29,815 nucleotides of DNA from the NCBI GenBank assembly GCA_029858305.1, contig JAOUFI010000025.1:1-29815 (forward strand), given 5' to 3'. The position numbers were made by a program, and so were the translations under genes. Below, piece by piece: positions 7,577 to 18,993 of the stretch (the first letter of the stretch is position 1; each line of letters begins with the position of its first letter). Source of the stretch: Candidatus Thorarchaeota archaeon. Its GTDB lineage: Archaea; Asgardarchaeota; Thorarchaeia; Thorarchaeales; Thorarchaeaceae. Below the pieces are notes generated by a model, which made no database searches, was not told where the DNA came from, and saw nothing but the letters and a program-made list of their open reading frames with translations.

Positions 7577-9766
7577 TTACATGTAGCCTGGAAGAACATC
7601 AGATGCCTTCTGAGGCTGTCGCTTCTTAACCTGTTCAGCTAGTTCTAGGAACCGCTTGATATCTTCTTGAGAGATACTTGGTCGAGTTTCCTCCAAGGCC
7701 GCCTTGAAATGTTTCATATGAACAGGTTTAGTCTTCCAATCACTTCTGACAGCAGTCATGGCAGCTTCACGGACAAGATTCTCAATATCCGCTCCAGAAT
7801 AGCCATCTGTTAAATCAGCAAGCTTCTCAAGACTAACATCATCAGCCAATGGCATCTTACGCGTATGTACCCTGAATATTTCGATTCTTGCGTCGCGATC
7901 GGGAGGTGGTACAAACACTACTGTATCAAAACGACCAGGTCTTAATGCAGCAGGATCTATGATGTCTGCTCTATTTGTTGCTCCGATGACAAGCACGTTT
8001 TGGAGGGATTGCATACCATCCAACTCAGCAAGGAACTGATTGACAATTCTTTGGCTAACGCCGCTATCATCACGCATTCCTCGAGCTCCGAGAATTGCAT
8101 CTATCTCGTCAAAGAATAAGACGCACGGTGCTACCTGACGGGCTTTCCTGAAGAATTCACGTACAGCCTTCTCAGACTCTCCAACATATTTGTTGAAGAC
8201 CTCTGGACCTCTCACGGAGATAAAGTTCGCCTCGGACTCTGTGGCAACAGCTTTTGCAAGGAGAGTTTTCCCAGTTCCAGGTGGGCCAAAGAGAAGTACA
8301 CCCTTTGGTGCTCTGATACCCATTCCTTCAAAGACCTCAGGATACTTCAGAGGGGTTTCCACGGCTTCGCGAAGCTGTAGTTTGACCTTTGACAGACCAC
8401 CGACATCATCCCAACGGATATTTGGCTTTTCAACAAGAACCTCTCTCAGGGCAGAGGGAGATACTTCAGTGAGAGCCATTTCAAAGTCAGCCTGTGTCAC
8501 AAAAAGATTAGACAGAATGTCAGCAGGAATATCACCAGTATCTGGATCAACATGAGGTAATACTCTTCGAAGAGCCTGCATTGCAGCCTCTCTTGCAAGA
8601 GCTGAGAGATCAGCGCCTACGAACCCATGTGTGACAGATGCTAGTTTTTCAAGATCGAGATCTTTCTCAAGTGGCATTGATCTAGTATGAATTTGGAGAA
8701 TCTCAAGTCTACCCTTCTTATCTGGGACTCCAATGATTATCTCTCTATCAAATCTGCCAGGACGTCTCAATGCTTCATCGATATCATCAGGACGGTTGGT
8801 TGCACCAATAACGATTACTTGCCCACGTCCAGCTAGACCATCCATAAGAGCTAGTAGTTGCGCAACTACTCTGCGCTCAACCTCTCCTGTGACTTCAGCG
8901 CGTTTCGGTGCAATGCTATCAAGTTCATCAATGAATATGATAGATGGGGCATTCTTCTCCGCATCTTCGAATGTCTCACGTAACTTCTGCTCAGACTCAC
9001 CGTAGAACTTTGACATGATCTCAGGGCCATTAATCACTTTGAAATTAGCCCCCGATTCATTTGCTACAGCCTGAGCAATCAGAGTCTTTCCAGTACCCGG
9101 AGGACCCATGAGGAGCACACCTTTCGGGGGAGTGATTCCAAGTCGTTTAAACAACTCAGGTGATTTCATGGGAAGTTCAATCATCTCACGAATCCTAACG
9201 AGTTCTTTGCCAAGTCCTCCAATATCTTCGTATGTGACTTGTGGAACTGCAAGTTCTTCTGGTTTTACAGGTTTGGTCAAGACCTCTACTGTTGTATCAG
9301 GTGTGACTCGACCGTATTTTCCTGGGGCAACAGCAGTGGCTGTGAATTGCATTCCTTGGCCTATTGATGAGATAAGAATTGTATCACCTTTGGTGATTGG
9401 TCTATTCAATATCTGTTGTTTCAAGTAATTCTCAAAACCGGGTTGAAACCTTACTGGTTGACCAGGTGCGATGACGACACGAGTGGCATCTGGAACATTC
9501 ACACTACTTACTTCTACCATTTCACCAAGCTTTACGCCCGCATTACTTCGGATTAGACCATCCATCCGGACCATGTCTAATATTTCATCCTCTTTGAGAC
9601 TAGGCCAACAGACAGCAATTGTTTCCCTTGATCCTTTAACAAGAACATAATCTCCTGAACGAACTTTCAGATGGTTTCTCACATCAGAGTTCAATCTAAC
9701 AATGCCTCGACCTTGATCCTTAGGCATTGCTGCTGCTACCTTAAGTCTAATAGCTTCATCAGTCAT
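7577..9766 (-). CDS. cdc48: CDC48/p97/VAT family AAA+ ATPase
   Basis: N-domain (DQGRGIVRL...RMDG..R.NAG) plus two AAA modules: GPPGTGKT twice, IIFIDELD and LFFDEID Walker B motifs, ALRRPGRFD and ALRPGRFD. Confidence 0.97.
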
Positions 9767-9780
9767 TTTGCATAACTCCT

Positions 9781-10203
9781 CTAATTGATTCTTAGATATC
9801 CTTCTTTTGCACCTGAATTGCCCTTTGATGCCATCTTCAATGATATCTCCATTACTCCATTTCGAGAAGAAACACTCGATTTCTCAATATCAACGTCAAA
9901 GTCAAGATCAATCTTAATGCTCTTTCTTGTACCATCGAATGTGATTGTCATGGTTCTTGCATCTATCTTCACAGAATGGCTAGTATCTTCATAGCCAGTC
10001 TTCACGAGGAATAATACTTCATCCTCAAGATCAATACGTTCAAAATCAGGTTCTTTTTCTTGATTGAATTCGTTATCATCTTCATCCATCATAGAGCCAG
10101 TAAAGTAACTATATGATGTGCTCCCCTCAGGAAGAGTTCCCAAAGAACCCAGGAGGGATTCGAACACCCTTCGAAACACTGACTCAAAGTCATCGTCTAT
10201 CAA
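9781..10203 (-). CDS. hsp20: Small heat-shock protein (Hsp20/alpha-crystallin family), divergent
   Basis: Acidic, Phe-rich N-terminus, SSRNGVMEISL (the NGVL motif), and a C-terminal LRIN (IxI-like) motif. Lies directly upstream of cdc48. GGAGG precedes the TTG start. Confidence 0.75.
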   Translation of the reverse strand: MIDDDFESVFRRVFESLLGSLGTLPEGSTSYSYFTGSMMDEDDNEFNQEKEPDFERIDLEDEVLFLVKTGYEDTSHSVKIDARTMTITFDGTRKSIKIDLDFDVDIEKSSVSSRNGVMEISLKMASKGNSGAKEGYLRIN

Positions 10204-10226
10204 TTAAGAATTCATCCTCCAGTTGC

Positions 10227-10272
10227 GAAGCCCCGGGCGGCTATGCCGCCCTTGAGTCACCAGTGGGGCTCC
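10227..10272 (-). promoter_or_regulatory. GC-rich structured 5' leader of hsp20-cdc48
   Basis: mRNA sense: GGAGCCCC-ACUGGUGACUCAA-GGGCGGC-AUA-GCCGCCC-GGGGCUUC. These nested stems lie just upstream of the GGAGG Shine-Dalgarno sequence. Confidence 0.5.
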
Positions 10273-10299
10273 TTTTCTGTACAGGTGCTAGTCAACACC

Positions 10300-10350
10300 T
10301 AGTATACCACATGGTATACTAATACCACTTGGTACAATAGGTATATAAAT
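10300..10350 (-). promoter_or_regulatory. TATA box with two tandem TACCA-N2-TGGTA palindromes (putative repressor operators)
   Basis: Minus-strand TTTATATA at 10349-10342. Perfect palindrome TAGTATACCA-CA-TGGTATACTA at 10300-10321 and a second TACCA-CT-TGGTA at 10323-10334. Confidence 0.7.
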
Positions 10351-10380
10351 CTTAGGAAATGCTCACCATCGGATTTTCAC

Positions 10381-10554
10381 TCAGATGTCAATATTCTCCT
10401 TTCGGAGAATATCACGTGCAACAAGCACCCCTGAAACTGATGCTTGCATAAGACCTCGAGTAATTCCTGCTCCATCTCAAATTGCATAGAGATTCGTCAT
10501 TTCTGTCTCAAGGTTATTCGAGAGTTTGAGTCTAGAACTGTAAAATTTGACTTC
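10381..10554 (-). pseudogene. Orphan 3' fragment of the FAD-dependent oxidoreductase gene (diverged duplicate of 17602-17778)
   Basis: Manual translation EVKFYSSRLKLSNNLETEMTNLYAI*DGAGITRGLMQASVSGVLVARDILRKENIDI* matches the C-terminus of the 17602-18993 protein at 42/57 residues. It has an in-frame TGA at 10479-10477 in place of Gly. Not in the ORF track. Confidence 0.93.
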
Positions 10555-10559
10555 CAGAA

Positions 10560-10935
10560 TTACTCCGATATTGTCAACATGATGTAGTCCTTTAATTCAT
10601 TAGGTATCGTACCAAGATCTTCTGCTATGTGGTCAGCTTCTTCTTGAGTTACATCAATTATCTTAATCTCTATTCCATCATCTCTAAAAGCTTTGAGCAC
10701 GATTTGAGCTTTTTCACTTGAATAATCCAAAACAATTTTTCGACCCAGTGAATGCAGAATCAGGTACGCATAAGCAGTAACGTAGAGTAGCTCGAATTGC
10801 TATGTCGCCATTATGATCAATAACCTGCCAGTAAAAACCAGTCGCAGACATCATTGATGCCGTTGTACTTGAAGGGGAGAACGACACCACTCGCAAGGGT
10901 ATTCTGTCTGAAGATTCAGTAGTTATAATTATCAA
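10560..10935 (-). pseudogene. Frameshifted remnant of an unknown gene at the island edge
   Basis: An open frame lacking a 5' start at 10799-10560 (QFELLYVTAYAYLILHSLGRKIVLDYSSEKAQIVLKAFRDDGIEIKIIDVTQEEADHIAEDLGTIPNELKDYIMLTISE*) could be joined by a frameshift near 10800 to the 10935 ORF. Confidence 0.45.
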
Positions 10936-11060
10936 ATAAAGATATGAGAATTTAATAGTTGGTTTGCTGTCAAATTATCTTGGTTAATATTAGTATATTG
11001 CATTAAGGCTAGCATTCGTCATGATTCTTTTTTCGATATATTGCCTTGGAGGAGTCAACC

Positions 11061-14000
11061 ATGGGATATGGAGATGGAATACTAAAGAGAGTGAATAAGA
11101 GGTCAAAATTGTTCTTTCGAGTTTGCGTTGTAATGATTTTTATAAGCATGATTTCATTGGTCGAATTTGAGTACGCTGCAAATCAAGCACTACCTGTTGA
11201 TAATCCATTGCAGATGTCCCGTGAGAACACAATTGAGAGTGATAATCCTCCACGAAATCCCTCTTCGTTGAAAGAACTTGTCCAAGAACTCATCGCTCTC
11301 CTACCTCCAGATCCACAGGATGCAGATGACGATGGACTCCCTGATATCGTGGAAAGGATTATCGGAACAAACTCTACATACAATGACACAGACCACGATT
11401 CATTGACTGATTACTTTGAGGTATTTGCAGATTCAGACCCCTTAGAACCAGATACAAACTTTGATGGAATGCCTGATAACCATGAGTTTTCTGTTTCAGT
11501 CAGTGACATCGATGGTGATGGTACACCGAATGTTTGGGACTTTGATAATGATGGCGATGGTGTCAATGATGACCTTGACGCAGACCCATTCAGAAGGACT
11601 AATACACGCATGAAATTTGATATGAGTATAGATTTGAGTGGTGTGCCAACATACATCACTTTTCAGTTGATACCTGCCAATGTCGAAAACCTACAGCTAA
11701 TAGACCAATTTTGGGACTGGCCCTATGATACAACTGGTGCCATGCAAGATTTGGATTCTTCCAAGGAAGATGTGAAAGTCATTCCAATGTTGAATATCAC
11801 ACTCAATGCAATTCCTGAACAGGCAGACGTGGAAGACTACGGAATTCAAGTGGTTTCGAATGGCATCCACGTGCCTATCAGTCCTGTTATGGAAAATGAG
11901 CGAGTAGTGGCGTTCAGTAGCAAAATGTTCTTTCCCGCAACTGAATCCTTTTGCTTGATGATGAGTGTAGAACTCGAATGGGAGGTCATCGGGTTTACAG
12001 ACATCAACGCAATTGCACTAAATTCCTCATCCAATGGATATGTAATAATAGATTCAACTGGATACGGTGTTGCGCGTGAATCCTCAATTGAGAATGCAGC
12101 CCTTCAACGTGTAATCTGTGGGAAGAACCAGATAGCACTCAAAGAAGTTGGTGGTGGTTATCTCTCAGTGACTGACGATGGTTGTGTAGTGGCAAATGCA
12201 ACCGATATCGGTTCTGATGAAACATTCACTGTTCACTATATCGATGATACCATCATCACTCTAGAGACTGCTGACCAGAATTATATTGGAATTGGAGATG
12301 GTGGATTTCTCATTGCTAATGCAAGTTCTTCAACAGCAGAGCGTTTCAATATGACTGACCTTGGATACAGACCTGATTCCACATTGCTTGTCACATATGA
12401 TGAAGGTTTCATGCTCACTGGAATGGCTGTTGAAGAGATGCATTCCAGTAGTGTAGGTTTATTCTATAGTTCAAACCGGGACATGACACTAGCATCTGAT
12501 ATGATTCTACCCTACATCTTTCTACATAATTCAACAAATCACCTTGCTGACATACCATCACTTCTACCAGATTACGACATCACCCTTCAATCCACAACAG
12601 ATGACTTTTCCCATCGTGACGAGGCACTGATCACCCTTAGTAATGAGCTAATCCCATCTGCTATGGAATACTTGCCTGACAATGAAAATTATCCAATCAT
12701 CATCGCGACTGAAGATGCGATGAAGACTGCAGACCTATCAGATATAGTTCCTGAATCATTTTTGATTACAGGTCCTATTGATCTGAATTTGACAGTATGT
12801 GATCTTGTGACATTGAAATCCTCCAAGACACACTTCTATAACACATCATCTAAGTCAGCTCTCTCTTTGATGGAGGTATTTGATGAGATTGATAGTTGGG
12901 CACTCAGCGAAAATGCCACATTCAACATCATGTCAATGATGCTCCGTTGGCACACTGGTGAATATACGATATTTGACCCAAGTACTCCAACGGTACCATA
13001 TTCACCTGAAACAAGCCTAGTGGATACGATTGTGTATGTGACAGGAATAGGAATGGAAGCACTCGGTGTGTATTCTCAAATTCTTACAGGATGGATGGCT
13101 TGGAAATGGTTGGGCTCCATGTATAATATACAGGGATTGAGCAAGGTAGAAGTTGGTGAGGTTCTTAATACCAAGAGCACAAACACCTTGACACAGTGGT
13201 TAAAGGCTTGCAAGAGTCTTGACAAGATTGATGATTCTGCAAAGTTCGCCAAATCTGTGAATCGCCTTGATGAATTCATGTTGATTGTAGGTATCATTAT
13301 TGATCTAGGGATCTCCATAACAGGGGGTATTATGCTAGCCAATAGTATCGGAGGTAGTTTTGGGAAAGCAGTAGGTGCCACCTTTGGTACGGTATCAGGC
13401 GTTGTTGGCCTAGCAATAACAGGTCTTCTCTATGGGATAGTCCAAATTCCTTATGTTGGATGGGTATTGGCCATTGGTATGGTCATTGCTGACATGATTG
13501 GTGGATTTTCAGATAAGCTTGTGTCGTGGTTGACAAGTGTGATTGTCGGTGATGTGGAGGTTTATTCTGAAGTGACACCTTCATTTGATCAAGAAGAAGA
13601 GTTTGATATCACAATTACAGACAAGGATAACAATGGACTTGATGCCAGAGATAGAATAGATGTTGTAGCTAGAATAATCGCTATTCTTAATGCGACAGGC
13701 CCTGGTAGAAGTAAGGGAATTCGTGATAGCTACAATATTCCAAAAATCACTATAGCTCCTCCATGGGGTGCTCTGTCCTCTAATACATGGTCGAGTGAAC
13801 CTGCTGAGGAAGATAGCAACACGATTTTTGGAGATAACTATACTGTCCAGGAGCGGACATACCGTTGTGAGGCATGGATTGAACCTAGTACAGGTATGCC
13901 CAACTTTCCAGTGACCCTTATCCTGCACAATGATTTCTATTTGAATAATATCTATCGTAATTATTGGCTTGGTTTTATCCCAGAATATCACTATCGACCA

Positions 14001-17000
14001 GTGAATGATTCCGAATCCACTCTAGAGTACGCAACTCTCTATTATGATGTGATGCCAAATAGTATTGACAGCTTCACTCGTTGGAGATACATAACTCCTC
14101 TCGACCATGACCATGATGGTCTGAATGATGAAGATGAACTCCCGGGCATGGCGTGGAAGTGGGACTATGACCAGGATGGTCTGAGTGATTATTATGAGAC
14201 GATCATCGGCTCAAACCCATGTTCGGCAGACACGGACGCTGATGGACTTCTTGATGGATGGGAACTGAATTATGGAACCAATATCACTGATAGAGACTCT
14301 GACAAGGATGAACTGAGAGACCTCAGAGAGATAGCAGGGTGGGAGGTCTCCTTCGAATTCGAATCCACACCATTCAAGATCCACGTCTATGCAGACCCTA
14401 GAATTCCTGATTCTGATGGTGATGGGATTGACGACTATGGCGAATACCGGAGTAACACCAATCCTCGATCTTATGACACGAATGGTGATGGGACATGGGA
14501 TGAAGAGAAGCCCATGATACAATATTCAATAGCGTTCGAACGTAGTTGGGGCATGGACCAGCCAATCAATACAACATTTGCTAATATTGAAAGTGACCTC
14601 AATGGAGACCTCTATGTCCTAATGGGGGATGGTGGATATTCAAGTGATAGTTACTATTATTCAGATGCAAGTACGTGGTGGATAACAAAACTGGATTCAA
14701 ATCTCAGCATTATACCAACAGGTTCCTATTTCTCGACTTTTGATGGAAACTCTGATTTTAAACCAGTATTAACAATCGACAAGGAAAATGAAACATTATA
14801 TTACCAAATTTACGTTGGGAGTCCTGGACATGGCAAGTTCGAATCATATAATCTCAATGGTAGTACGCATTATGGTACTATTGATTCTAGTATTATTATG
14901 ATGTTTGACGCTTGTTTTTCTCCACCTAACATGCTATATTATATTTGGCGCATCGAGGGTGATTGCCTTTCGTATAATGAGATTCTTTCGCCATCATCAT
15001 GGACTGAAATATGGACGGAATCTGTTGGCAATATTGAAACTGATTTAGGTACACTTGGTCAGCCCATTTCCTGTGCATATTCCAAAGAGAATCAACTCAT
15101 GTATGTTGCCTGTGAGAATAGAGTGTTTGGTTATGATCCTACTGGAACAATCAGCCCATTTCTCTTTGATGGGACATTCACTTTTCCAAGGGGAATTACA
15201 ATTAGTGATGACAATGTTATCTATGTTGCAGATACTGGTGGACATTGTATTCGTGCCTTTGATCTGAACGGGGAAACAATTCCCTCTTGGGGTATCAACG
15301 GAACCTATGGTTTCGAGGGTTATGAGGAGGGGAACTTCACAAATCCTATGGACATTACTTTTGGAACTGATGGTTCATTCTATGTTGTCGAGAATTGGGT
15401 CGAACATGGAAGAGTTCAGAAATTCGTGCAAAATAGTACATGTCTGAGTGATCAGCTCGTTGCTACCGATGATTCAGACTTTGATGGTCTCACAAATGAG
15501 GTCGAAGTAGCTGGATGGTCTACATCTATTACAGACTCCACCAGCACTCATCAGGTCAATGTCTACAGTAACCCTCTCCTCAATGATTCTGACTACGATG
15601 ATTTAGATGATTATACAGAGAATCAGATTGGAACTGATCCCCAAAGCATTGATTCTGATGGTGATGGTTTGAGTGATTCCATCGAGGTCGAGCTAGGTAC
15701 TGATCCTCTACATTGGGACTCAGATAGAGACCTGCTTGGTGATGGCATAGAGATCACCTATGGTTGCAGCCCTCTATCAGACGATACTGATACTGATGAA
15801 CTCACAGATTTTACAGAGTTCCTCCTTAATTCAGATGCAAATTCGACGGATACCGACAATGATGATCTCGATGACAAGACTGAGTTTGACTTCAATTCTA
15901 ATCTCTTGATTGCTGATTCGGATGGTGATCTCATGTTTGATGCACTTGAGTATGATGAGGGCACGGATCCCAACTCTCTCGATTCTGATGGCGATGATGT
16001 AGTCGATGGTATTGAGAAGATATATGGTACGAATACAATGTTAGCAGACTCAGATGGCGATGGAGCTTTTGATGGGCTCGAGATTGCGCTCTGGCTTAAT
16101 CCGCTCTGCAACGATACTGACGGTGATGGATTGGGCGACATGGATGAGTTAGAATTAGGTGTGAATCCATGGAGTAATGATACTGATTTTGACGGGATTC
16201 CTGACCTCTACGATCCTGATACCTACATCATAGATTTTCTTGATGTTCTCATCATTTCTGACTCAGACATTCTCCTAAGTAGTCAAGACTTTTGTGAAAA
16301 TCTGGATGAACTCGCTGATGTATCCCTTCTCTCCTGTAATGAGTTTACTTCAAGTTACAGAGATTCTCCATATGTCGTCATGATTGGTAGACCTGAGGCT
16401 AATGCAGAAGGAATATGCGGATTGATGTATGATGTCCTTGAGGATACTGGTAGTGTCCTTCAGGGAATGATGCAACCGGGAGCTCATAAGATTGCTACTC
16501 GATATGGTGTTTGGACAGAAACACAGACTGTGGTGATGTTGACCGATGCAACAGTGTATGATGTCTACTCAGTACTTGCTGCACTCAAAGGGAAGGAGGT
16601 AACAGTCCTTCCTGACACTATCCGGATTGAGTACACATCCTGTGCTGTGAATGCATCCAGCTATGCCGCCTTTTACCAGATGGATTCCATCGATGCCATC
16701 AAACAGACAGATTGTATTCTTGCCTTTATGATTGATTCATTAGAGAATGTCGTACTCAATGTGACGAGATATGCTGAGGAAACAACGCCTCATCCTCTAA
16801 CAGCTAGTTCTGGATTGATGAATAATGATGTATCTCTTGGAAGATACATAAACATCCAACTCACAGTTGGTGGAACAGGAACTCATGAGGTCAAAGAAGC
16901 ACTTGTCAAGATATATTATAGGCAATCTGATCTTGATAAGAACAACAATGGATTACTAAACGATACAGTGGATGTCAACGAAACAACATTGGTCCTCTAT

Positions 17001-17276
17001 CACTTTAATGATACAACTCAGACCTATACAAGACTATCTACTGATTTGGATTGGGTTCATGCATGGGGTGTGAATACCAGTGATGTTGAGATTTATGGCG
17101 AACTCTATGCGGGATATGTGTGGGCCAGAGTTGTTCACCTATCCATGTTTGCCATAGCTGGCTCAGTGAATGTATTGCCTATCCCGGACCAATCTCTCCT
17201 ACTGATTCTGATAGCATCCTCTGGAATTATTGGGATTCTTGCGCTAGTTGTCCTAATTAAACGGAGGAGACAATGA
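11061..17276 (+). CDS. Giant cell-surface protein: N-terminal signal/TM, DxDxDG Ca-binding (bacterial TSP3-like) repeats, fascin-like beta-trefoil, hydrophobic helical core, NHL repeats, PGF-pre-PGF-like domain, C-terminal TM anchor
   Basis: GGAGG at 11048 then ATG at 11061. Many DxDxDG..D..E...G.[DN]P repeats; IALKEVGGGYLSV...ETF (fascin-like); FTFPRGITISDDNVIYVADTGGHCIRAFD (NHL); ends LLLILIASSGIIGILALVVLIKRRRQ; many N-x-S/T sequons. Confidence 0.85.
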   Translation: MGYGDGILKRVNKRSKLFFRVCVVMIFISMISLVEFEYAANQALPVDNPLQMSRENTIESDNPPRNPSSLKELVQELIALLPPDPQDADDDGLPDIVERIIGTNSTYNDTDHDSLTDYFEVFADSDPLEPDTNFDGMPDNHEFSVSVSDIDGDGTPNVWDFDNDGDGVNDDLDADPFRRTNTRMKFDMSIDLSGVPTYITFQLIPANVENLQLIDQFWDWPYDTTGAMQDLDSSKEDVKVIPMLNITLNAIPEQADVEDYGIQVVSNGIHVPISPVMENERVVAFSSKMFFPATESFCLMMSVELEWEVIGFTDINAIALNSSSNGYVIIDSTGYGVARESSIENAALQRVICGKNQIALKEVGGGYLSVTDDGCVVANATDIGSDETFTVHYIDDTIITLETADQNYIGIGDGGFLIANASSSTAERFNMTDLGYRPDSTLLVTYDEGFMLTGMAVEEMHSSSVGLFYSSNRDMTLASDMILPYIFLHNSTNHLADIPSLLPDYDITLQSTTDDFSHRDEALITLSNELIPSAMEYLPDNENYPIIIATEDAMKTADLSDIVPESFLITGPIDLNLTVCDLVTLKSSKTHFYNTSSKSALSLMEVFDEIDSWALSENATFNIMSMMLRWHTGEYTIFDPSTPTVPYSPETSLVDTIVYVTGIGMEALGVYSQILTGWMAWKWLGSMYNIQGLSKVEVGEVLNTKSTNTLTQWLKACKSLDKIDDSAKFAKSVNRLDEFMLIVGIIIDLGISITGGIMLANSIGGSFGKAVGATFGTVSGVVGLAITGLLYGIVQIPYVGWVLAIGMVIADMIGGFSDKLVSWLTSVIVGDVEVYSEVTPSFDQEEEFDITITDKDNNGLDARDRIDVVARIIAILNATGPGRSKGIRDSYNIPKITIAPPWGALSSNTWSSEPAEEDSNTIFGDNYTVQERTYRCEAWIEPSTGMPNFPVTLILHNDFYLNNIYRNYWLGFIPEYHYRPVNDSESTLEYATLYYDVMPNSIDSFTRWRYITPLDHDHDGLNDEDELPGMAWKWDYDQDGLSDYYETIIGSNPCSADTDADGLLDGWELNYGTNITDRDSDKDELRDLREIAGWEVSFEFESTPFKIHVYADPRIPDSDGDGIDDYGEYRSNTNPRSYDTNGDGTWDEEKPMIQYSIAFERSWGMDQPINTTFANIESDLNGDLYVLMGDGGYSSDSYYYSDASTWWITKLDSNLSIIPTGSYFSTFDGNSDFKPVLTIDKENETLYYQIYVGSPGHGKFESYNLNGSTHYGTIDSSIIMMFDACFSPPNMLYYIWRIEGDCLSYNEILSPSSWTEIWTESVGNIETDLGTLGQPISCAYSKENQLMYVACENRVFGYDPTGTISPFLFDGTFTFPRGITISDDNVIYVADTGGHCIRAFDLNGETIPSWGINGTYGFEGYEEGNFTNPMDITFGTDGSFYVVENWVEHGRVQKFVQNSTCLSDQLVATDDSDFDGLTNEVEVAGWSTSITDSTSTHQVNVYSNPLLNDSDYDDLDDYTENQIGTDPQSIDSDGDGLSDSIEVELGTDPLHWDSDRDLLGDGIEITYGCSPLSDDTDTDELTDFTEFLLNSDANSTDTDNDDLDDKTEFDFNSNLLIADSDGDLMFDALEYDEGTDPNSLDSDGDDVVDGIEKIYGTNTMLADSDGDGAFDGLEIALWLNPLCNDTDGDGLGDMDELELGVNPWSNDTDFDGIPDLYDPDTYIIDFLDVLIISDSDILLSSQDFCENLDELADVSLLSCNEFTSSYRDSPYVVMIGRPEANAEGICGLMYDVLEDTGSVLQGMMQPGAHKIATRYGVWTETQTVVMLTDATVYDVYSVLAALKGKEVTVLPDTIRIEYTSCAVNASSYAAFYQMDSIDAIKQTDCILAFMIDSLENVVLNVTRYAEETTPHPLTASSGLMNNDVSLGRYINIQLTVGGTGTHEVKEALVKIYYRQSDLDKNNNGLLNDTVDVNETTLVLYHFNDTTQTYTRLSTDLDWVHAWGVNTSDVEIYGELYAGYVWARVVHLSMFAIAGSVNVLPIPDQSLLLILIASSGIIGILALVVLIKRRRQ
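15470..16220 (+). repeat. Tandem ~22-codon acidic Ca-binding repeats within the giant protein (smaller blocks near 11320-11590 and 14100-14500)
   Basis: Repeating D[ST]DxDxxxDxxExxxGxxPxxx units, e.g. DSDGDGLSDSIEVELGTDPLHW and DTDGDGLGDMDELELGVNPWSN. Confidence 0.85.
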
Positions 17277-17323
17277 GGTCAAAACACGGTAGGACTTTGA
17301 TGCCATTCGTAATGAGGTTTGTA

Positions 17324-17411
17324 CACCAGCTTCAGGAAACATCTTGCCACTTATGTAGCTGTGAACGATAGAGTACAACTTGAAACATATCAGGCAGTCC
17401 TTGATTCTTAA
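17324..17411 (+). pseudogene. Possible relic of a tyrosine recombinase/integrase catalytic box II
   Basis: CAC-c-AGC TTC AGG AAA CAT CTT GCC ACT reads H/SFRKHLATYVAVNDRVQLETYQAVLDS* after removing one base. This parallels HxLRHxxATxL...xDLxxVQxLLGH. The match is short and degenerate. Confidence 0.35.
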
Positions 17412-17601
17412 GAACTGTCGAGAAACAGCAATTGCACAGCGGAGTTGTCTTTCTTATTTCTCTGTTTTTAATCAGCTAGTCATATGAGGAGTCACTATTG
17501 TGAACCCGAAATGCAATAATATTTTCAACTACTCCATGACCGGTGACTTCCACCAATTAGTGGCTTGCCCCGTATAAGTGGTCGCAACATGTAATTCTTT
17601 C

Positions 17602-18993
17602 TTAAATTGTATCAATACCTTCCCTGCTGAGAATTTCACGTGCGACAATGACTCCGGAAACCGAGGCTTGTATGAGACCTCGCGTTATCCCCGCTCCGTC
17701 TCCAGCTGCAAATAGATTCGACACCTCGGTCTCAAGAACACTGGATAACTGGAGCCGGGACGAGTAGAACTTCACTTCTATTCCATAAAGAAGCGTACCA
17801 TCGTCTGCAACGCCAGGACAGAGTTTATTCAAGGCCTCCAACATCTCAAGTATGGAACTCAAGTGTCTAAATGGAAGGACAAAACTGAGGTCTCCAGGAG
17901 ACGCACTAGGAAGAGTAGGTCGTACCGGACTTCTAGCAATCCGCTCAGTGGTACTCCGTTTGCCTCTTCGCAGGTCTGCGAGTCTCTGAACTATAACTCC
18001 ATCGCCAAGCATATTGGCAAGACGTGCGATTGACTGACCGTATGCGATGGGTTCCTTAAAGGGAGCAGTGAAACGTGTAGAAACAAGGAGCGCAAAATTC
18101 GTGCTTGCTGTCTTCATATTAGCAAATGATTGCCCGTTGACTGTCAGAATCTCGTCATAATATTCTGTCGTAACAACTCCACCAGGATTAAAGCAGAACA
18201 CACGGACCTTATCGTCGAACTCTTTTGAGTAGTATACCAGCTTCGGTTCATAGAGTGCCTTTGCTATATCTCGCATTACTGGTTCGGGAATCTCAACTCG
18301 TAAACCAATATCCACGTAGTTGTTCTCAGTATGTAGATTCAATCGCGCTGCCTGCTTTGAAAGCCATTCATTGCCAACCCGACCTGGAGCTGCGATAACA
18401 TAACGCGCATTTATCATCTCTCCACCATTGGTCACAAGACCTTGGACAGCATGACCATTGATTTGTATATCCTTGGCTTCAGTATCGAAGAGGATTTTGA
18501 CGTGCTTCTGAACATCGTTGTACATTCGTCCCATAACATCTATACAGCCCTCACGTCCCATATGCCGTACTTTCTGGGGAATTAGCTCCATACCTATCAG
18601 TACAGCTTTCTGTGAGTAGTCTTCAATATCATCTTCATTCGCACCGTATATCTTGGTAGGAGCTCCGTAGGCAAGGTACTTTTGATCGACGTATTCAATC
18701 ATATCGGAGAGTCTCTTGTTGCCAATGAATTCATAGAGCCAACCTCCAACTTGTGTGGATTTAATCAATTTCCCATCAGAGAAAGAACCAGCTCCTCCCC
18801 AACCAGCTAGGATGTCACATGGATTACATTTTTTGCAGCCACGCGCTGAGTCGGAGTTTGGACAATGGCGCTTCTCAATGCTCTTTCCACGTTCAATTAT
18901 GATAATCTTTAGATCTGGTTTGTGTTCTATCATTTCGAGAGCACAAAATATTCCAGCAGGGCCGCTACCAACAATTGCCACGTCATAATCCAA
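17602..18993 (-). CDS. NAD(P)/FAD-dependent oxidoreductase (COG2509-like uncharacterised FAD dehydrogenase)
   Basis: DVAIVGSGPAGIF Rossmann motif, Cys cluster C..C..C.PC, GWGGAGSFSDGK, FCFNPGG, EVKFYS, GDGAGITRG. The true start is probably TTG at 18993 with GGAG upstream. The track's extension to 19278 overlaps the divergent neighbouring gene. Confidence 0.9.
   Translation of the reverse strand: MDYDVAIVGSGPAGIFCALEMIEHKPDLKIIIIERGKSIEKRHCPNSDSARGCKKCNPCDILAGWGGAGSFSDGKLIKSTQVGGWLYEFIGNKRLSDMIEYVDQKYLAYGAPTKIYGANEDDIEDYSQKAVLIGMELIPQKVRHMGREGCIDVMGRMYNDVQKHVKILFDTEAKDIQINGHAVQGLVTNGGEMINARYVIAAPGRVGNEWLSKQAARLNLHTENNYVDIGLRVEIPEPVMRDIAKALYEPKLVYYSKEFDDKVRVFCFNPGGVVTTEYYDEILTVNGQSFANMKTASTNFALLVSTRFTAPFKEPIAYGQSIARLANMLGDGVIVQRLADLRRGKRSTTERIARSPVRPTLPSASPGDLSFVLPFRHLSSILEMLEALNKLCPGVADDGTLLYGIEVKFYSSRLQLSSVLETEVSNLFAAGDGAGITRGLIQASVSGVIVAREILSREGIDTI

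Follow-up and report, generated by a model that had tools for sequence, protein, structure and literature searches.

A duplicated oxidoreductase gene end around a surface-protein gene in a Thorarchaeota archaeon suggests tail displacement by captured foreign DNA

Phage 21 and the element e14 integrate in the icd gene of Escherichia coli and restore the gene with a diverged 3' end of their own. Gene ends are also exchanged by C-terminal displacement, for which Kirchberger et al. cite Jackson et al. 2009. At rhs, contact-dependent growth inhibition (CDI) and type VI secretion system (T6SS) effector loci, such displacement is attributed to homology-facilitated illegitimate recombination (Kirchberger et al. 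2017, PMC5361080). In the Thaumarchaeota, 14 of 68 integrated elements are located in 3'-distal parts of protein-coding genes, according to a 2019 study (PMC6563490), while integrated elements with tyrosine integrases and an 11-base-pair (bp) motif are described for the Atabeyarchaeia, a group of Asgard archaea, in a further paper (PMC11529989). Here, we analyse a stretch of 29,815 nucleotides (nt), referred to as the window, which is an entire contig (C156, JAOUFI010000025.1) of a Candidatus Thorarchaeota genome (G000, GCA_029858305.1). It carries a gene for a FAD-dependent oxidoreductase and, 7.2 kilobases (kb) downstream, a second copy of the end of that gene, with a giant surface-protein gene (the cargo) between the two. 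This scar is, on balance, probably the product of gene-tail displacement by a recombinase-free, homology-guided capture of foreign DNA. Scars of this type are known; this one is fresh and well preserved and stands out by its setting, in that the host is an Asgard archaeon, the gene encodes a housekeeping enzyme, the cargo is a surface-protein gene, the donor apparently stood outside the genus and no recombinase was found. A literature search, whose coverage ended short of supplements and most subscription journals, yielded no account of integrase-free tail displacement in archaea.

The rhs, CDI and T6SS loci share with this locus a constant 5' part that has gained a new 3' end and new downstream genes by transfer, an old 3' end orphaned downstream in the same orientation, the lack of an integrase, and a conserved stretch that serves as anchor. 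Unlike those loci, the gene affected here encodes a housekeeping-type flavoenzyme of an Asgard archaeon, and its new tail encodes the same function, with no toxin tip or immunity gene. As cargo there is a surface protein that combines NHL, TSP3 and fascin-like parts, and the native tail has been kept whole, which makes the event a duplication and not a partial replacement. The icd and thaumarchaeal elements are similar in that the target is completed by an incoming diverged 3' end while the native end is displaced, in that relatives carry an empty site, and in that the site has been used repeatedly. However, no integrase, exact attachment (att) core or other element genes are present here, the junctions vary between events, and a chromosomal gene of another locus forms the cargo.

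The oxidoreductase gene (17602..18993, minus strand) is intact and was identified by its Pfam domains Pyr_redox_2 and FAD-depend_C. Its coding sequence most likely comprises 463 amino acids (aa) from a TTG codon at 18993, where the start LDYDVAIVGSG coincides with the start point in relatives; the 558-aa open reading frame (ORF) from 19278 over-extends. The C-terminus reads EVKFYSSRLQLSSVLETEVSNLFAAGDGAGITRGLIQASVSGVIVAREILSREGIDTI and is open to the normal stop, with the tail motifs conserved. The second copy, the orphan (10381..10554, minus strand), consists of 57 codons and a TGA stop of its own and lies in DNA without an ORF of at least 60 aa in that frame; the translation of 10560..10378 (minus strand) ends in EVKFYSSRLKLSNNLETEMTNLYAI, a stop codon, DGAGITRGLMQASVSGVLVARDILRKENIDI and a final stop codon. 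The two tails are identical at 42/57 residues and 120/171 nt, and differ by neither frameshift nor indel. The duplication spans exactly from the crossover point to the stop codon, with no similarity past the stop. A blastn comparison of the tail regions (95/125 identical, E 4e-23 against a 401-nt subject) places the similarity far beyond chance. Furthermore, a whole-genome protein search recovered the orphan at C156:10387-10557 (minus strand) with 74% identity to residues 500-556 (E 1.7e-19) and one TGA, and no further copy of the oxidoreductase tail in the 3.04-megabase (Mb) assembly. An earlier reading of the window by a model, made from the letters alone (the sequence-only reading), had reported a same-orientation copy of the last 57 residues about 7.2 kb downstream, with 42/57 identities, one nonsense codon and heavily diverged synonymous sites. 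Its hand counts, including 18/57 G/C-ending codons in the orphan and 28/58 in the intact tail, proved exact on recounting; the start-to-start distance of the tails is 7,224 bp, the nonsense codon is a TGA at 10479..10477, and the proportion of synonymous differences (pS) between the tails is 0.67, with a third-position identity of 0.47. The observation is confirmed, and the interpretation that accompanied it is supported in its core.

The G000 assembly (3.04 Mb, 205 contigs) is 88.9% complete. A Logan contig of 9,132 nt, derived from run X1 with another assembler, shows 0 differences from the window over 10100-17893 at an even depth of 11.3. The sequence-only reading had named continuity across the two junctions as a check, and this single contig bridges both, at the level of contigs. 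Run X1 is probably the source of the window, and the contig therefore counts as a second assembler and not as a second data set. A 299-nt contig of run X2, which belongs to another study, is identical over 17315-17613 and crosses from the spacer behind the oxidoreductase gene into the working tail; stretches without cover in runs X2-X4 were given no weight. The duplicated-tail structure is independent of any one assembler.

To establish where the gene originally ended, its neighbourhood was compared among relatives. Full-length orthologues are present in 16 same-genus genomes, and the second tail copy was detected only in G000 in a protein search of 41 genomes; none was seen among 92 further loci. 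In all 15 same-genus loci compared (G019 was omitted, its contig ending inside the gene), the oxidoreductase gene is followed by a small gene, orf140, and cdc48 comes next wherever the contig continues. The gap between gene and orf140 measures 168-395 bp in 13 of the 15 loci, which represents the empty site. Larger gaps occur in G007 (1.4 kb) and G008 (3.1 kb), each with a different cargo, as the sequence-only reading had expected for this junction. The G007 cargo (L033:2992-4035) is a 347-aa ORF with two similar Cys-rich, zinc-ribbon-like modules that bear paired Cys motifs and without a usable family match in Pfam or NCBIfam, and that of G008 is a convergent gene for a 926-aa beta-helix surface protein; with the cargo of G000, three different cargos are found at this junction. 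A gap of 177 bp separates the orphan from orf140 in the window, a distance like the gap between gene and orf140 in most relatives, and since orf140 is the ancestral neighbour, the orphan sits where the end of the gene belongs. The ancestral order is shown to be oxidoreductase, 177-bp spacer, orf140 and cdc48. The order oxidoreductase-hsp20-cdc48 advanced by the sequence-only reading stands in its arrangement, whereas the name hsp20 draws on a weak match of orf140 (NF041800, 22.6 bits against a cut-off of 140; PDB 4rzk, E 0.011).

Several comparisons bear on which of the two tails is native. In a tree of the gene body (1,203 nt), G000 is sister to G007 with support of 100/99, while in a tree of the tails (165 nt) the orphan is sister to the G007 tail (91/92, below the star threshold) and the intact tail stands alone on a long end branch (0.69). 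The orphan groups with the lineage of the gene body in these separate trees, as the sequence-only reading had predicted. Additionally, G007 keeps GACATCTGA, the last three codons of the orphan, at the same spot behind its own 1.18-kb insert, followed by intergenic DNA that is 184/192 identical to that of G000, which argues that the gene of the common ancestor ended as the orphan ends. Between orphan and intact tail, the proportion of nonsynonymous differences (pN) is 0.16 and the ratio of nonsynonymous to synonymous rates (dN/dS) 0.106, compared with 0.065-0.14 for working orthologous tails. As this ratio matches that of working tails, both copies must have served as working gene ends through nearly the whole of their divergence. 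A tail cut off from its gene body could not have done so, and the two tails therefore diverged in different genomes, with the orphan dying only recently.

The working tail (17602..17781, minus strand; codons 500-558 and the stop) bears marks of an origin elsewhere. Outgroup-only sites were defined as positions where the residue of G000 occurs in none of 17 genus-level sequences (15 genomes together with L067 and L068) and in at least 40% of 89 outgroup sequences. Five such residues were found (I500, Q510, F523, E548 and R552, present in 46-91% of the outgroup sequences), all five in the last 59 of 470 residues and none in the preceding 411, a distribution with a probability of 3e-5 under an even spread; ten control members of the genus have 0-2 such sites each, none of them in the tail. 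The confinement of these residues to the last 59 accords with the earlier proposal that the insertion supplied a foreign tail. The mean identity of the intact tail is 0.68 to outgroup tails (0.57-0.62 for other genus tails) and 0.76 to genus tails (0.80-0.86 for other genus tails). Identity between G000 and G007 drops from 0.830 in the body to 0.703 in the tail, and third-position identity to G007 is 0.382 in the tail, as against a mean of 0.586 and a minimum of 0.436 over the 55-codon body windows tested. The outgroup-only residues and this identity pattern point to a tail donor outside the sampled genus. Taken together, the comparisons indicate that the orphan is the native end, recently dead, and that the working tail is foreign, making the present gene a chimera of native body and foreign last 59 codons. 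The G+C content of third codon positions (GC3, 0.483 in the intact tail) was discarded as a sign of foreign origin; 6% of 499 58-codon windows from the genes of the contig reach the intact-tail value, and codons 360-400 of the oxidoreductase gene already do so. A suspected third tail replacement, in G008, was likewise rejected: its last 100 nt are 0.87 identical to those of the near-twin G024, against about 0.95 overall, and other windows range from 0.83 to 0.89.

The cargo gene (11046..17276, plus strand) is convergent with the oxidoreductase gene and encodes a protein of 2,076 aa with an N-terminal hydrophobic segment, TSP3 calcium-binding repeats, an NHL repeat, a fascin/FRG1-like domain and a C-terminal membrane anchor followed by RRRQ; from these features it is read as a probable cell-surface protein. 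Among 28 genus genomes, a close orthologue exists only in G003 (87% aa identity; 90% nt identity over 6,389 nt), the remaining matches being paralogues at 35-46%, and a scan of the genome collection with the 2,076-aa protein returned one locus, that of G003. The G003 copy (C212) lies on another contig than the G003 oxidoreductase gene, between a small GTPase gene and genes for an alpha/beta-hydrolase and a phosphoglucomutase (PGM). Identity between G000 and G003 at fourfold-degenerate sites is 0.852 (n=815) in the cargo, compared with 0.31-0.38 in the vertically inherited genes for the GTPase, PGM, cdc48, oxidoreductase and topoVI-B, which implies that the cargo moved between lineages long after their split. 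The block shared with G003 extends from 10894 to 17330. It includes, at 90% identity, the apparently co-transferred 152-bp upstream (promoter) region of the cargo (10894..11045, plus strand) and, at the other side, a seemingly hitch-hiking downstream flank (17277..17330; 87% over 55 nt to G003:C212:17097-17151). In its final 24 nt (17307-17330), the block corresponds to the end of the alpha/beta-hydrolase gene that neighbours the cargo in G003 (ORF 17128-17940, minus strand), which suggests that the block was cut out of the giant-gene/hydrolase locus. In runs X3 and X4, the match to the block (90-95% identity) is confined to the interval from about 10884 to 17329, with unlike sequence on either side, and X4 beyond 17329 resembles, by eye, the continuation of the G003 hydrolase gene. 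These comparisons indicate that the cargo was transferred recently and came from another chromosomal locus.

Two further stretches lie between the shared block and the two tails. On the side of the working gene, a 271-bp spacer (17331..17601) runs from the oxidoreductase stop to the block and, apart from a 122-nt intergenic element (17442-17563), has no match in the 28 genus genomes or the 92 other loci. On the side of the orphan, a 339-bp stretch (10555..10893) has no match in its own genome, the genus or the 92 loci; it holds a 56-aa ORF (10560-10730, minus strand) whose stop abuts the orphan. A 73-aa ORF (10714-10935) that straddles the block border is probably spurious, and neither ORF belongs to a family at useful E-values in Pfam or NCBIfam. 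The 122-nt element is 78% identical to G000:C107:32837-32958, within a variable GTPase-hydrolase locus. The interval from a Rab-like GTPase gene to the alpha/beta-hydrolase gene varies between genomes: in G003 (C212:9000-18200, L058) it has a 167-aa ORF and the giant gene, and in the same neighbourhood of G000 (C107:30186-35291) four other ORFs, including a fasciclin-like one, without the giant gene.

The point of exchange was located in the best-conserved part of the gene. When 36-nt windows were ranked by the identity of G000 to 89 outgroup genes, the window 17797..17762 (minus strand), encoding LLYG(I/V)EVKFYS, ranked 1 of 1,375 (0.752; gene mean 0.545). It is inside this block that native sequence gives way to foreign and that the duplication begins, in agreement with the entry point at or upstream of the EVKFY codons given by the sequence-only reading. 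Within the EVKFY codons, 12/15 nt agree between the tails (by eye), and the longest exact run between them is 8 nt, with no shared exact att core; neither exact direct repeats nor terminal inverted repeats bounding the insert were listed by a repeat scan. The junctions differ between events, that of G007 lying 9 nt before the native stop and that of G008 at the gene end, and a single att site is disfavoured because the G007 and G008 insertions join at these other positions. Matches of 36-38 nt at 17759-17796 in X3 and X4, with unlike flanks, were considered as att sites and rejected, since by translation they are distant homologues of the same gene. The ORFs of the insert contain no integrase, transposase or nuclease domain detectable with Pfam, and scans of the window for tRNA genes and Rfam families gave 0 matches. 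PF00589 (tyrosine recombinase, E <= 0.001) had 0 matches in the whole assembly, not even of XerA type, although 14/14 control genomes were positive; this recombinase search comprised PF00589 and the general Pfam scan, and serine recombinases were not searched for separately. HNH, LAGLIDADG_3 and GIY-YIG nuclease domains are absent from C156, with matches on C205, C139 and C32 (there at position 52 kb).

The following course of events would account for this structure. A cargo gene and its promoter would first have been lifted from a different chromosomal locus with 24 nt of an old neighbour. The incoming DNA, from a thorarchaeote outside the sampled genus, would have brought in an oxidoreductase gene end of its own (the last ~59 codons) with the cargo behind it, so that tail and cargo would have arrived together. 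Pairing and joining would have taken place at the best-conserved 36-nt block of the resident gene, leaving the resident body to read in frame into the foreign tail and the enzyme whole. The native tail would have been pushed 7.2 kb downstream, where it lost its function and has since gained one stop codon. As for the route, we infer a single crossover with a circular molecule, or an 'ends-in' or homology-facilitated illegitimate event, because the topology is that of a direct duplication of a homologous segment around an insert.

A number of points weigh against this reconstruction. No donor was found. A search of 28 genus genomes, 80 metagenome loci and 2 viral loci recovered neither the intact tail nor the two unique flanks. 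The metagenome scan, in which 80 loci were kept of 573 relatives, gave a best match of 81% aa identity, none closer than G007; both viral loci are full-length genes (52% and 41%) and not tail-only, att-like copies; and among the 92 further tails, the one closest to the intact tail has an nt identity of 0.667. The G003-shared block stops short of the ends of the insert by 271 bp and 339 bp, which would allow for two successive events, and ordinary homologous recombination would be inefficient inside tails that are 70% identical without a long exact stretch. The ranking of the conserved block was made with the present, already chimeric sequence of G000, and a recombinase acting in trans could be encoded in the missing part of the 88.9% complete assembly. 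Regarding the phylogeny, approximately unbiased (AU) tests on the 165-nt tails reject none of four alternative groupings (p about 0.42), among them intact tail with orphan, intact tail with G007, and intact tail with G001 and G013, and the orphan itself carries two outgroup-like residues, N13 and I25. Finally, pS between the G007 tail and the orphan (0.80) exceeds that of the gene bodies (0.59), which weakens G007 as a reference; from this excess and the remnant behind the G007 insert, the G007 tail is read as a probable second, independent replacement.

The borders of the shared block lead to the first alternative to be weighed, which we consider unlikely: a small insert would have replaced the tail, and the giant block 10894-17330 would have landed inside it later by illegitimate recombination, the remains of the first insert being 10555-10893 and 17331-17601. 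This would explain why the block shared with G003 and with X3 and X4 ends inside the insert with 339 and 271 bp of unrelated DNA beside it; the 24 nt of a foreign hydrolase gene are a sign of an illegitimate cut, and the element in the right-hand spacer is related to the variable locus on C107 of G000 itself. However, both events would have to be recent, as the orphan has hardly decayed and the cargo retains 85% fourfold-site identity to G003, and no genome shows the intermediate state. Such a two-step history is a refinement of tail displacement by captured DNA and does not contradict it. The sequence-only reading had offered two mechanisms, homology-facilitated gene capture, which fits better, and a site-specific integrative element that supplied the gene with a tail of its own and later decayed to its cargo, a proposal that gains no support here and that we judge distinctly unlikely. 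A duplication running from the crossover exactly to the stop, with the exchange at its 5' edge, is admittedly typical of attL/attR, and a very conserved crossover block would also make a good att site. Against this, the 7.2 kb hold no integrase or other mobile-element gene and PF00589 is absent from the assembly; the 12/15 nt and 8-nt run noted above do not amount to an exact core; and the other insertions at the locus join elsewhere. Moreover, the orphan is too young to have left an entire element much time for decay, and the cargo is a gene of chromosomal origin that still carries a piece of the gene next to it on the chromosome.

That the switch falls in the most conserved 36 nt of the gene, the kind of site which homing endonucleases recognise, might also suggest that such an enzyme cut the block and that repair copied a foreign tail with the DNA behind it. 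We regard this as very unlikely, given that no HNH, LAGLIDADG_3 or GIY-YIG match exists on C156, that the only long ORF of the insert is the surface protein, and that the G007 ORF directly behind the tail matches no nuclease family at the thresholds used. Least probable is an origin without foreign sequence, either by in-situ duplication of the gene's own tail during insertion, followed by divergence, or by chimeric assembly. Staggered breaks or replication errors can indeed leave direct repeats around an insert, but the synonymous sites of the two tails are saturated (third-position identity 0.47, pS 0.67) and yet dN/dS is 0.106, the working copy holds outgroup-only residues, and the arrival of the cargo was recent. 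The window is a metagenome-assembled contig, for which a chimera is conceivable; this conflicts with the Logan contig that spans 10100-17893 without a difference and with the identity of X2 over 17315-17613.

The genome was also scanned for same-strand, tail-only copies of the last 150 residues of its 1,866 ORFs of at least 200 aa. Three further displaced tails were identified in G000. In all three cases, the genes between the two copies are for membrane or secreted proteins and are mostly convergent, and none encodes an integrase. The etfA gene (electron transfer flavoprotein alpha with a ferredoxin domain; G000:C88:6403-9363, L150) has a displaced 42-aa tail, 90% identical and 1.6 kb downstream, beyond a convergent gene for a 470-aa membrane protein, a structure common to G007 (86% nt identity) and G001 (78%). 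A prenyltransferase/cyclase-like gene (G000:C32:6055-10565, L151) has a displaced 46-aa tail, 67% identical and 3.3 kb downstream, the copies bracketing a 555-aa SBBP beta-propeller protein and two membrane proteins. The third gene, nrdD (G000:C129:18196-21850, L152), has a displaced 24-aa tail, 92% identical and 1.4 kb downstream, on the far side of a 447-aa secreted protein; the corresponding site of G003 (C5, L154) is empty with a decayed tail. In G016 (C133:20000-30730, L153), at least seven nrdD tails of 16-38 aa are distributed over 10 kb between unrelated genes, among them those for a beta-helix surface protein, a pyridoxal phosphate (PLP) enzyme, a TPR protein and a ParA-like ATPase. 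The nrdD tails share a core of ~26 nt with a 5-bp inverted repeat, conserved even at synonymous sites. Two other candidates were rejected, one on C76 as a TFB paralogue cut by the contig end and one on C114 (39% identity) as a probable paralogue. Tail-like copies also occur 0.6-1.5 kb downstream of etfA in G004, G005, G011, G016 and G020.

It is tempting, though on present evidence rather doubtful, to suppose that the conserved final codons of ordinary genes serve Thorarchaeota, and perhaps Asgard archaea in general, as landing pads for gene cassettes that lack an integrase. A cassette between two tail copies may loop out as a circle through recombination of the copies, and the circle may re-enter the same gene of another species or genus at its best-conserved block; each entry may push the resident tail back and so build integron-like stacks, for example the nrdD tails of G016. 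The likeness to integron arrays, in which genes accumulate at a fixed point and earlier units are pushed back (a parallel drawn in PMC5361080), extends to this set of at least seven tails, which looks array-like. Unlike integrons, these loci have no integrase and no attC, the repeat is coding sequence, and the oxidoreductase locus of G000 has a single layer. If landing pads of this kind exist, surface-protein genes would be shuttled between lineages, and the oxidoreductase island would be a newly formed case of a single layer in which both parents can still be read.

Tail displacement by captured DNA, as favoured here for the oxidoreductase gene, would make the scar a datable and polarised record of gene flow into an Asgard archaeon, with the old end, the donor end and the cargo all readable, and would mean that DNA from outside the genus was built into the chromosome without a visible recombinase. 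Since the cargo is a giant surface protein and the three other scars bracket membrane or secreted proteins, this route may be a major means by which these archaea alter their cell surface. To our knowledge, no bench study of recombination in these archaea is possible yet. If the pattern is general, recombination hot spots and transfer partners of uncultured archaea could be mapped from displaced tails as a simple signature in the sequence.

The genes and intergenic DNA on the far side of the orphan are as expected from the ancestral arrangement. The native intergenic region upstream of orf140 (10204..10380, minus strand), with which the orphan is contiguous, is conserved across the genus; orf140 itself (9781..10203, minus strand) was recognised by synteny, and cdc48 (7577..9766, minus strand), which encodes an AAA+ ATPase with the Pfam domains CDC48_N, CDC48_2 and two AAA, is syntenic in relatives. 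A full-length oxidoreductase match is missing in 8 of 24 sampled same-genus genomes, including G009, G012, G014, G016, G017, G020, G021 and G022, and a 5' remnant of the gene with stop codons lies beside the orf140 upstream motif in G020 (C110:14845-15325). The gene seems to be dispensable and repeatedly lost in the genus, and incomplete assemblies may explain some of the absences. Just upstream of orf140, a G+C-rich stretch (10205-10262) that looks structured, with no match in Rfam, is near-identical between G000 and G007 and conserved in the genus. Additionally, a palindromic motif (10299-10340) upstream of orf140 and cdc48 recurs at 90% identity in G000:C114:7046-7087, is conserved across the genus, and may be the operator of a heat-shock-type regulon.

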